This document shows, piece by piece, positions 43,001 to 46,000 of a DNA stretch of 64,000 nucleotides. Position 1 is the stretch's first letter. The number at the start of each line of letters is the position of its first letter. The position numbers and the translations under genes were made by a program. Source of the stretch: Eledone cirrhosa (Eukaryota); assembly GCA_964016885.1 (NCBI GenBank), contig OZ024747.1, positions 28,396,001-28,460,000 on the forward strand, given 5' to 3'. The notes beneath the pieces were generated by a model. It saw only the letters and a list, made by a program, of their open reading frames with translations. It made no database searches and was not told where the DNA came from.

Positions 43001-46000
43001 AATTTTTTGAGTGCTTTATATCAGTTATAAAAAATATTTGCTTGTTGTATCCCAACAATTTAAATAGAACTTCTACATATATATATATATATATATATTA
43101 TGAAGAGAGAAGAAACATTTAGATATAATTAGTAATAAAATGTATCATACCTAAACTGTTCCTAAATTCCTCGACTACGTAGTTTCGTGGCATAAACAAA
43201 AACAATATATGAAAGATATAGAGTCCTTGCGAGGTCTGCCGACTTATCAAGAGGATACCTCATTTTACTAGTCTCAAGAACGCGTCTACACGACGTGAGA
43301 AAGAATCCCAAAAGGCGGAGGGGGAGATAGTCACGCGATATAACGGTCGAGAAACAGAGCTAAGCCTCTTATAACCACGAAGAAAATACCACGGAGGCGG
43401 AGGGGGCATTCATATCGAGGCCGTAGAAGAGGTAGTGAAGAAGGCGAGAAGTATGAGTAATGGAAGCTTTCCAATTGTCCCCACACTTCAAAGATTGCTC
43501 GACCAGAGGGAGTTATTAATATATTTAGAAACACACAGATACATGCGGACACACACATATATACATGAATGCATCCGCACCCAACTGTGAGTTAAGGGTG
43601 CCAACTTCACCGATGTTGCTCAATGAATGACTGGGACAGACCAATTCAGTTTGAACCAGACTGAACCAGTATCAGAGTTAAAATACATTATGAAGAGAGA
43701 AGAAACATTTAGATATAATTAGTAATAAAATGTATCATACCTAAACTGTTCCTAAATTCCTCGACTACGTAGTTTCGTGGCATAAACAAAAACAATATAT
43801 GAAAGATATAGAGTCCATTACTCATACTTCTCGCCTTCTTCACTACCTCTTCTACGGCCTCGATATGAATGCCCCCTCCGCCTCCGTGGTATTTTCTTCG
43901 TGGTTATAAGAGGCTTAGCTCTGTTTCTCGACCGTTATATCGCGTGACTATCTCCCCCTCCGCCTTTTGGGATTCTTTCTCACGTCGTGTAGACGCGTTC
44001 TTGAGACTAGTAAAATGAGGTATCCTCTTGATAAGTCGGCAGACCTCGCAAGGACTCTATATCTTTCATATATTGTTTTTGTTTATGCCACGAAACTACG
44101 TAGTCGAGGAATTTAGGAACAGTTTAGGTATGATACATTTTATTACTAATTATATCTAAATGTTTCTTCTCTCTTCATAATGTATTTTAACTCTGATACT
44201 GGTTCAGTCTGGTTCAAACTGAATTGGTCTGTTCCAGTCATTCATTGAGCAACATCGGTGAAGTTGGCACCCTTAACTCACAGTTGGGTGCGGATGCATT
44301 CATGTATATATGTGTGTGTCCGCATGTATCTGTGTGTTTCTAAATATATTAATAACTCCCTCTGGTCGAGCAATCTTAGAAGTGTGGGGACAATTGGAAA
44401 GCTTCCATTACTCATACTTCTCGCCTTCTTCACTACCTCTTCTACGGCCTCGATATGAATGCCCCCTCCGCCTCCGTGGTATTTTCTTCGTGGTTATAAG
44501 AGGCTTAGCTCTGTTTCTCGACCGTTATATCGCGTGACTATCTCCCCCTCCGCCTTTTGGGATTCTTTCTCACGTCGTGTAGACGCGTTCTTGAGACTAG
44601 TAAAATGAGGTATCCTCTTGATAAGTCGGCAGACCTCGCAAGGACTCTATATCTTTCATATATTGTTTTTGTTTATGCCACGAAACTACGTAGTCGAGGA
44701 ATTTAGGAACAGTTTAGGTATGATACATTTTATTACTAATTATATCTAAATGTTTCTTCTCTCTTCATAATGTATTTTAACTCTGATACTGGTTCAGTCT
44801 GGTTCAAACTGAATTGGTCTGTCCCAGTCATTCATTGAGCAACATCGGTGAAGTTGGCACCCTTAACTCACAGTTGGGTGCGGATGCATTCATGTATATA
44901 TGTGTGTGTCCGCATGTATCTGTGTGTTTCTAAATATATATATATATATATATATATGATAGATTCTGTTGTATAGTAGTGAGGTCTGGACAATACCTGC
45001 CTAGTGATTATTCTGTCAACCTCAGAAAATTAAAAGTGAAAGGTGACCATAATGGAATTTAAAGTTTGCACATAAAAGTACATATATAAATTCCAATGGA
45101 ATTTTGTCCAGCACACTTCTGCTTCTTTAGCAGAGATCTAAAGAATGAAAAGGAAAAGCTCACCAAATCAGCAAATTCGTTCATTCCCAGCCAGTAGGTG
45201 TGGAGACCCATATCAGCCTTCAGGTTGTGTTCCTTCACAATTTTCAGATTTTTCTCCCAGATGACACGACTGAAAACAACAGCAGTTGATTAATACAAAT
45301 TTCTATGTCTTTAAAAGAACACATTAGATCATGTAGGTAAAGATACACTACACCTGAAACAAAAAGTTAAGATGGTATCATTTAGAATGCCTTTGATTAT
45401 AAATTTTTTCCAATCAACCAACTAGTAGGTATGTTGTTTATGCTCTATGAAGGAATGAAACCCGAGTTCACCTCTAGTTTGGTGGGAACTTCAAACCCTT
45501 TATGTTGTGGGTATAATAATTGTTTTGGAAGATTGATGCACATCAACAGAAGATCAATATCATTGGTAACATCACTTTAGATTACATCATTGGAATATAT
45601 ATTGTAAACTTAATTTCTAATCAAACTTACTTGAATTAATAGTTTGTTATTGCATATTCCATTGTATAAGTCAACCCCCCCCCCACCCCCCAGCTAACCA
45701 GTTATGTACTGGACCAAGAAAATCTCAATTCTAAATATATAGATTATAAATGTATATAAAATGAAGGTGTGACTTATCTACATGTGTAACTTATACATGG
45801 GTATATAGGTACTTTAATTAATTGTTACTTAAAATAATTAATTTCTTAAGTTGGAAACTTACATAGTTACTTTAATTAAAACTTAAATTAATTAAAACTA
45901 TATTACTTTGATTCAAACTTACTTAAATGAATACTTAATTACTTTTAATAAAAGTTTAATTAATGCTTAATTGTTTTAAATAAAACTTACTTCAATCAAT

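Follow-up and report, generated by a model that had tools for sequence, protein, structure and literature searches.

The insertion and its surroundings

The window analysed here is a 64,000-nt stretch of the Eledone cirrhosa contig OZ024747.1. It contains a 590-bp repeat arranged as two head-to-head arms in a (TA)n tract. Positions in the repeat unit (q) are counted from the base after the predicted hammerhead cut, q1 being 44106. The features of this copy are the following:

43075-43098: (TA)n target sequence, left
43093-43816, minus strand: inverted arm of 724 nt (1.2 units), with the short site A as 3' end at the left edge
43168-43261, minus strand: hammerhead motif 3, in the inverted arm
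43758-43816, minus strand: fourth motif, truncated, 3' half only, without the catalytic core
43814-43816: TCC microhomology, the head-to-head joint of the two 5'-truncated arms
43814-44939, plus strand: direct arm of 1,126 nt (1.9 units), with the long site B as 3' end at the right edge
44017-44110, plus strand: hammerhead motif 1, type I, with a U3-A8 core, a long stem II extension and a palindromic stem III; predicted cut after 44105
44017-44021 and 44043-44047, plus strand: complementary GAGGT and ACCTC, a possible stem I-loop II pseudoknot
44106-44176 (q1-71), plus strand: hairpin A, z -4.1, stopping about 9 nt before site A
44106-44695, plus strand: complete 590-nt unit bounded by two predicted cut sites; self-pairing z -5.5
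44186-44349, plus strand: 164-nt "tail", from site A (44185) to site B (44349)
44275-44338 (q170-233), plus strand: hairpin B, z -5.75, stopping about 11 nt before site B
44607-44700, plus strand: hammerhead motif 2; predicted cut after 44695
44934-44958: (TA)n target sequence, right

The direct arm has a period of 590 with a single internal mismatch (at 44233), and the inverted arm is the reverse complement of 44052-44775 with three mismatches, one of which (43096) lies at the (TA)n edge. Our re-measurement of arms, junction and flanks agrees with the first-pass annotation, which had described 590-bp units, 1.2 inverted and 1.9 direct, switching at TCC within (TA)n. It had also seen no credible ORF, and the longest stop-free frame in the repeat is indeed only 86 aa. 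Its description of the ends as circularly permuted had to be abandoned, since the arms stop instead at two fixed sites, A at the left edge of this copy and B at the right. Among four runs compared, one that covers the whole window has (AT)n loose ends at 44775 in nine contigs; this run is possibly the source or from the same species, so it provides no independent evidence. The repeat is a high-copy noncoding tandem repeat with a conserved hammerhead motif. A C-rich box (CCCCTCCGCC) is found twice, at 44463-44474 and 44543-44554, and a TATA-like word lies near 44495; all of them are kept in both subfamilies described below, and together they are possibly a putative internal promoter.

Several other repeats share the window. 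A two-armed, 5'-truncated Penelope-like insertion occupies 39630-43080, with its short end near 39630 and its long end near 43080, and the 590-bp element is inserted in (TA)n at this long end. It carries an ORF fragment (40193-41119) resembling other such elements and a decayed hammerhead near 42910; another two-armed copy of the same family is located at about 38380-38840. A lone C3-G8 hammerhead of a different family is present at 23600-23730, where (TA)n begins 50 nt after the cut site. Broken frames with a LINE-type endonuclease and reverse transcriptase, which we take to be RTE-like, are found at 885-3394 and 60931-62799, and a duplicated segment (about 4700-6260 and 54080-55670) carries one and the same open frame, and the same tandem repeats, at both places.

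A young family with thousands of copies

Exact matches in the 3.0-Gb genome number 7,696 for an 18-nt word at the cut site and 6,998 for a 19-nt word at the core, with zero for the reversed controls, so that these hammerhead words are not chance occurrences; the genome-wide count that the first-pass annotation had proposed thus gives a very large family. The best 40 of 240 candidate regions are 98-100% identical over full 590-591-bp units, tandem arms reach about six units, and an older subfamily has 83% identity by majority comparison. For detailed analysis, we used 75 loci chosen by similarity or by the 18-mer (set 1), 60 selected through their end motifs (set 2), plus 29 loci of the older subfamily; the sample is drawn largely from the first part of contig C1 and the top similarity matches. 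Genome-wide, there are 3,617 exact ends (1,944 of type A versus 1,029 + 644 of type B). Given that 193 arms in 123 insertions correspond to 1.57 ends per insertion, the family comprises at least about 2,300 insertions.

A U3-A8 hammerhead that appears conserved

The type I hammerhead is present in two consecutive plus-strand units (at 44023 and 44613). Stem I is formed by TCCTC (44023-44027) and GAGGA (44106-44110) and is followed by the core TTGATAA (44028-44034), stem II (GT-c-GGCA/TGCCAC), GAAA (44092-44095), the palindromic stem III CTACGTAG and a GUC cut site with C17 at 44105 and 44695. All these parts lie where the first-pass annotation had placed them. Its count of one hammerhead per monomer holds for three complete motifs (44023 and 44613 on the plus strand, 43255 on the minus strand), the fourth being cut by the junction and coreless. 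The motif has a 3-8 Watson-Crick pair, G5, A6, A9, G12-A13-A14, A15.1-U16.1, H17 and three stems, as expected of a hammerhead; a search with Rfam returned no hammerhead match up to an E value of 5 and only sub-threshold miRNA matches.

Both U3 and A8 are found in 99 of 99 young units that were not picked on the ribozyme, and in 47 of 47 older units. The C3-G8 version of the core context is not above chance (18 genome matches versus 48 for the control), and hence there is no covariation of positions 3 and 8 within the family. The stem I-loop II pseudoknot suggested earlier keeps its complementarity, and GAGGT and ACCTC are near-invariant in both subfamilies; against it, we detected no covariation or compensatory change across either subfamily, and GAGG has a rival partner in a hairpin closed on CCTC (44024-44027). 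The proposed check for covariation across genomic copies thus found none for the nearly invariant pseudoknot strands or for the 3-8 pair.

The U3-A8 core had been given prominence in the proposal of a candidate new family, and was overrated, because U3-A8 hammerheads are natural and active in vitro (PMC3088659) and the variant accounts for about 1,300 hits among Schistosoma Penelope hammerheads (PMC4209133). A stem I-II pseudoknot is used by about 40% of hammerheads (PMC3088659), and we also found U3-A8 in an ORF-bearing Penelope-like family of the same genome. The U3-A8 pair, the pseudoknot and the 590-nt unit length have each been described previously and are not the novelty here; the ribozyme variant itself adds little. 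Lunse et al., in 2017, reportedly described Penelope hammerhead variants that cleave as dimers, which may bear on the activity of the U3-A8 form.

Within set 1, variants present in all repeats of an insertion affect a single one of the 56 hammerhead positions, the bulged C in stem II, versus 105 of 534 elsewhere. If the 18 positions fixed by the selection word are left out, the difference persists (1/38 versus 105/534, p = 0.003), and with both sets together the count is 2 of 56. Differences between the subfamilies are distributed similarly, with 1 of 38 hammerhead positions versus 98 of 534 elsewhere (p = 0.005). These substitution patterns suggest that the hammerhead is conserved under selection.

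Two fixed ends and their strict pairing

Arm 3' ends on the hammerhead strand fall at q80 (site A) or at q244-246 (site B), with (TA)n flanking 188 of 193 of them. Because two-armed insertions are arranged head to head, both of their outer edges are 3' ends, and all such insertions with classed ends (88 of 88) combine one A with one B; nine further loci have one or both ends at other positions. Among young unique pairs with both ends classed, the count is 70 of 70. Set 1 contributes 40 simple A+B insertions, in which one duplicated locus is included twice, 3 insertions with an unclassed end and 2 loci in several pieces, again with A and B at their outer ends, while set 2 contributes 31 A+B insertions and 4 with an unclassed end; no A+A or B+B two-armed insertion was found in either set. 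A hand count of the older subfamily, with B taken as 231-245, gives A+B for 18 of 18 classed pairs, none alike and two unclassed. Since one-armed copies use both ends (30 end at A and 23 at B), independence would predict that about half of the pairs have the same end twice, and the probability of 70 out of 70 under independent ends is 2^-70. One apparent B+B pair (C1:146.755 Mb) turned out to be a B+A insertion together with a separate B arm. In the fetched loci, a crude scan for motifs recovered short plus long outward pairs in 19 of 19 cases from four other hammerhead families, two of which carry ORFs with reverse transcriptase (RT) and GIY-YIG domains, some of these pairs being perhaps neighbouring insertions.

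The 5' ends, by comparison, are scattered. Junctions have overlaps of 1-5 nt in 40 of 70 pairs, and only 4 of 193 5' ends coincide with the cut site (about 2 expected). In 44 of the 70 pairs, one arm lies inside the other; in 26, neither contains the other, and 4 pairs have no sequence in common. The two 5' ends are within 15 nt of each other in 9 of 70 pairs (p = 0.011), and either end, A or B, may belong to the longer arm or stand alone. We make no claim for the strongest 5'-end hot spot, 10 ends in the 7-nt window 174-180, as it is equalled in about 4.5% of simulations. Target-site duplications, which as a retrozyme criterion measure >4 bp when present, are unreadable in the (TA)n flanks.

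On the whole, sites A and B are most plausibly start sites, with the intervening 164 nt as a long tail. The A+B rule is the Penelope "tail" signature and ties the retrozyme to Penelope-type integration. Neither the two fixed ends and their strict pairing nor the mutation spectrum reported below formed part of the first-pass annotation.

Predicted RNA structures next to the two sites

The 590-nt unit is strongly self-paired (z -5.47, with 0 of 100 shuffles as stable), and each of the two sites is preceded by one of the hairpins listed above. The 3' strand of hammerhead stem I also forms part of the base of hairpin A. The two hairpins are retained in the older subfamily, where 98% of cells are paired; the changes are one-sided only, and covariation is not above the shuffle control. 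The 25 nt preceding each site are nearly unchanged between subfamilies (0/25 and 1/26 differences), while the 5' strands of the hairpins change (11/35 and 12/36). Alignment rows for B and for the hammerhead were picked with motif anchors, so that invariant columns are partly selected, and we repeated the count without anchors.

The hammerhead alone folds no better than shuffled sequences (z -0.33). Stem I is absent (probability 0) from the equilibrium fold of 44001-44180, computed with a program that models no pseudoknots, because its 3' strand is taken up in the base of hairpin A and GAGG can close on its 5' strand. The duplex formed by the palindromic stem III in a dimer has a computed energy of -12.9 kcal/mol. 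From these models, we infer that the ribozyme would be able to act during transcription or as a dimer and would then be locked off.

Mutation spectrum and nature of the template

Divergence is 0.29% within arms, 0.57% between arms and 2.4% between insertions, and units in the same register (0.44%) differ no less than units in other registers (0.42%). Many arms read through the cut site, 35 of 88 in set 2 being longer than one unit. In 129 insertions, variants present in all repeats comprise, on the ribozyme strand, 36 A>G, 11 T>C, 11 C>T and 14 G>A changes. The ratio of A>G to T>C is 36/11 for shared variants and 13/3 for private ones, versus 11/36 for changes seen in a single repeat (p = 7e-5); the totals are 30 private all-repeat variants and 193 single-repeat changes. 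Shared variants are inherited by lineages and so are not independent, which makes the private set the cleaner test. At locus L074, for example, five private changes, three of them A>G, are found in seven to eight repeats spanning both arms.

The A>G bias is also present at unpaired positions (p = 0.005; 13 of 53 A versus 7 of 99 T) and relative to C>T (p = 2e-6), which makes G-U tolerance alone an insufficient explanation. In 6 of 46 cases, a shared variant disrupts predicted pairing, versus 76 of 126 in the comparison. Avoidance of a 5' G at A>G sites is a trend only (p = 0.07). A-to-I editing of RNA fits A>G changes on the RNA strand; as the source of the bias, we give it about an even chance, wobble errors of the polymerase being the alternative. 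Single-repeat changes show an excess of T>C over A>G beyond base composition (21 versus 3 at sites covered by at least three repeats, p = 0.005), the outcome expected if a reverse transcriptase made wobble errors on a hammerhead-strand template.

RNA-strand changes that reach every repeat imply that one unit was copied again and again, most simply from a circle. The spectrum therefore points to a unit-length, probably circular, possibly edited RNA that was copied repeatedly, and on these sequence patterns a circular template seems likely. The pattern that a linear or dimeric template would give, one variant in the corresponding unit of both arms, was seen at locus L006, that is, at 1 of 126 discordant sites.

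Partner elements and other hammerhead repeats

A first look at GIY-YIG sequences gave 10,596 candidates in the genome, of which 150 were scored. Elements with both RT and GIY-YIG domains are abundant, and one ORF of 938 aa has the two domains. The intact family to which it belongs has the C-x4-C-x2-C linker given for Neptune (PMC8557442), a minimal U3-A8 hammerhead and (TA)n targets, and its ends are located about 76-80 and 141-146 nt beyond the cut site. We found no homology between this family and the 590-nt unit, and as a partner it is only a lead. A comparison with 51 loci, a small sample, revealed no autonomous element with homology to the unit (best E value, 0.06), and no RT plus GIY-YIG ORF was found within the unit or joined to it in register in the loci analysed.

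At locus L157 (1609-3710), the 5' end of the A arm abuts a Penelope-like ORF fragment on the same strand, the product of either a template switch or a junction deletion. We considered L157 and L047 as chimeras with autonomous families and discarded the idea, as nested insertion plus junction deletion explains them equally well.

Hammerheads are widespread in the fetched loci, with 81 C3-G8 and 17 U3-A8 motifs outside the 590-nt family and, in the flanks, at least 12 motif groups with a palindromic stem III. Tails of about 50-95 nt occur in four other hammerhead families of these loci. At L037 (6560-8762), there is a separate 310-bp family, tandem and inverted, with a canonical C3-G8 hammerhead, which represents another retrozyme. 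An array of at least 20 kb (L195 and L196, C4:42.644-42.664 Mb) is built from units of about 656 bp that are about 92% alike, each with a C3-G8 hammerhead and a long stem II; its family is about 70% similar to a repeat adjoining a Penelope-like ORF in L125. This array is a retrozyme turned satellite.

Comparison with retrozymes and Penelope-like elements

Metazoan non-LTR retrozymes have been described by Cervera and de la Pena in 2020 (PMC7229834) and by Li, Clavereau and Pollet in 2026 (bioRxiv 10.64898/2026.07.22.740005), the latter arguing that they derive from the pseudo-LTRs (pLTRs) of Penelope-like elements and giving units of 51-972 bp. As in these accounts, the 590-nt family consists of noncoding head-to-tail repeats with one type I hammerhead per unit, a GC content under 50%, thousands of copies, a strongly self-paired unit within that size range and co-resident Penelope-like elements. 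It differs in its U3-A8 core and in the length of its stem II extension. Its short insertions are dispersed and have an inverted arm as well as two fixed ends, traits undescribed for retrozymes in the portions of both sources that we consulted. In the circle, its ribozyme is predicted to be inactive, as has been said of plant retrozymes and viroids and not of most animal retrozymes.

A head-to-head, 5'-truncated inverted arm and a tail on one arm are shared with Penelope/Poseidon, Neptune and Hydra (PMC3846280, PMC8557442, PMC11167929, PMC4209133). Endonuclease-bearing Penelope-like elements also have microsatellite targets, microhomology junctions, known U3-A8 forms and ends located 3' of a type I hammerhead with a palindromic stem III. 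Unlike them, the 590-nt family has no ORF, its unit is iterated up to about six times, and its tail is 164 nt long versus 30-40 nt. The tail on one arm is exceptionless among our classed pairs, while it is called "optional" in Penelope-like elements. The noncoding Chlamys MRC1 are Penelope-type passengers that also form multicopy head-to-tail insertions (PMC8557442). Nonautonomous Chlamys have 3' sequence in common with autonomous partners, and most Chlamys lack hammerheads (PMC8557442), whereas the 590-nt family has a conserved hammerhead and no homologous partner in the 51 loci compared.

The element thus behaves like a Penelope passenger and, judged by its sequence, has the characters of a retrozyme. 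Searches of mainly open-access literature found no report of strict end pairing, a tail of such length or an A>G signature in retrozyme insertions. The origin of inverted and tandem Penelope-like copies and of the one-sided tail is stated to be open (PMC8557442), and the copying of retrozymes from circles by Penelope enzymes is a hypothesis from co-occurrence and pLTR homology (bioRxiv 10.64898/2026.07.22.740005, PMC4209133, PMC7229834).

Proposed mechanism and alternatives

The explanation that we favor (probability of roughly 0.65) is a retrozyme mobilised by a Penelope enzyme, with two fixed starts on a probably circular 590-nt RNA. That the element is a nonautonomous element of Penelope type is very likely; mobilisation by a Penelope reverse transcriptase, already envisaged in the first-pass annotation, has strong signs in its favor in the inverted truncated arm, the tail on one arm and the (TA)n targets. 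Tandem copies would be transcribed, and the hammerhead would cut, probably either while transcription proceeds or in dimers paired through the palindromic stem III. Ligation of the 590-nt monomer would then yield a circle, and in this form the ribozyme is predicted to be held inactive. A Penelope-like enzyme would nick both strands of a (TA)n tract; priming would occur at site A for one target strand and at site B for the other, with a long hairpin just upstream of either site. The enzymes would each go around the template for a variable distance (mean of about 600-750 nt, up to 3.5 kb), and joining of the two cDNA ends would produce a head-to-head insertion, while retention of a single cDNA would leave a one-armed one. 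The Poseidon enzyme, a predicted dimer, nicks and extends both strands, and in vitro two internal start sites on the RNA delimit the tail, with the strands showing no difference (PMC11167929). Points that weigh against our explanation are this lack of a strand difference, the dispensability of hammerhead cleavage in the same assay, the predicted failure of our hammerhead to fold in its flanking context, and the finding that only one of nine predicted Xenopus retrozymes cleaved in vitro (bioRxiv 10.64898/2026.07.22.740005).

Two independent primings seem probable. The tail and the inverted copy of Penelope-like elements have been described before (PMC3846280, PMC8557442), and self-priming and resolution by the endonuclease are published proposals (PMC3846280, PMC8557442): a single priming would be followed by fold-back and copying of the first cDNA, and the endonuclease would cut the copy at the other site, which would then be a resolution site. 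Strict pairing would follow naturally, and the nine pairs with nearly equal 5' ends and the 44 with one arm inside the other are what fold-back would leave. Fold-back cannot, however, make the 26 pairs in which neither arm is contained in the other, let alone the 4 with nothing in common, and either end can be the longer arm or occur alone, so we consider this explanation quite improbable. A different rival retains the two starts and replaces the circle by a linear, uncleaved multimeric read-through transcript, with a hammerhead that rarely cuts. The Poseidon enzyme in vitro does not need hammerhead cleavage and uses mainly unprocessed RNA (PMC11167929), our hammerhead has a predicted off-fold in context, and the long arrays of another family in the genome show possible donors. 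The L006 variant is of the type expected, but such a pattern is confined to that single discordant site and same-register units are no more alike than others; A>G changes fixed in every repeat of both arms would still need a unit-length step, and the hammerhead is conserved across subfamilies. A linear multimer is therefore unlikely.

The unit could also be the pseudo-LTR of an autonomous Penelope-like element, or a satellite or inverted repeat maintained at the DNA level with a dead ribozyme relic. Pseudo-LTRs bear such hammerheads, tails and inverted copies (PMC8557442, PMC4209133, PMC3846280), and at L157 an A arm directly adjoins part of a Penelope-like ORF in the same orientation, but this one case is also accounted for by a 5'-junction deletion. 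The 135 young loci, in contrast, are tandem units (up to about six) with scattered 5' ends and no common ORF-bearing continuation, and the selection on the hammerhead and the strand-biased spectrum favor an RNA stage, which makes this reading very improbable. The first-pass annotation had named the pseudo-LTR of a catalogued Penelope element as the finding that would undo its proposal; in this respect, the loci analysed contain no ORF fused in register with the unit, and homology to a partner was sought in 51 loci.

With thousands of near-identical insertions, two well-separated ends and a short defined RNA, this young family makes predictions that can be counted: one end per strand, arms that are not mutual copies, and RNA-level changes in all repeats. 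The 590-nt unit is in addition a ready substrate for in vitro tests. We tentatively go one step further, to a more specific and rather doubtful model in which an asymmetric enzyme pair would prime the two strands at two hairpin-marked sites of one ribozyme-made circle, travel around it in two runs and fix A-to-I edits of the circle in all repeats. If this were true, the insertions would be a fossil record of the unsolved step in Penelope integration, the pairing rule would be general for Penelope-type elements, and retrozyme circles would be real transposition intermediates.
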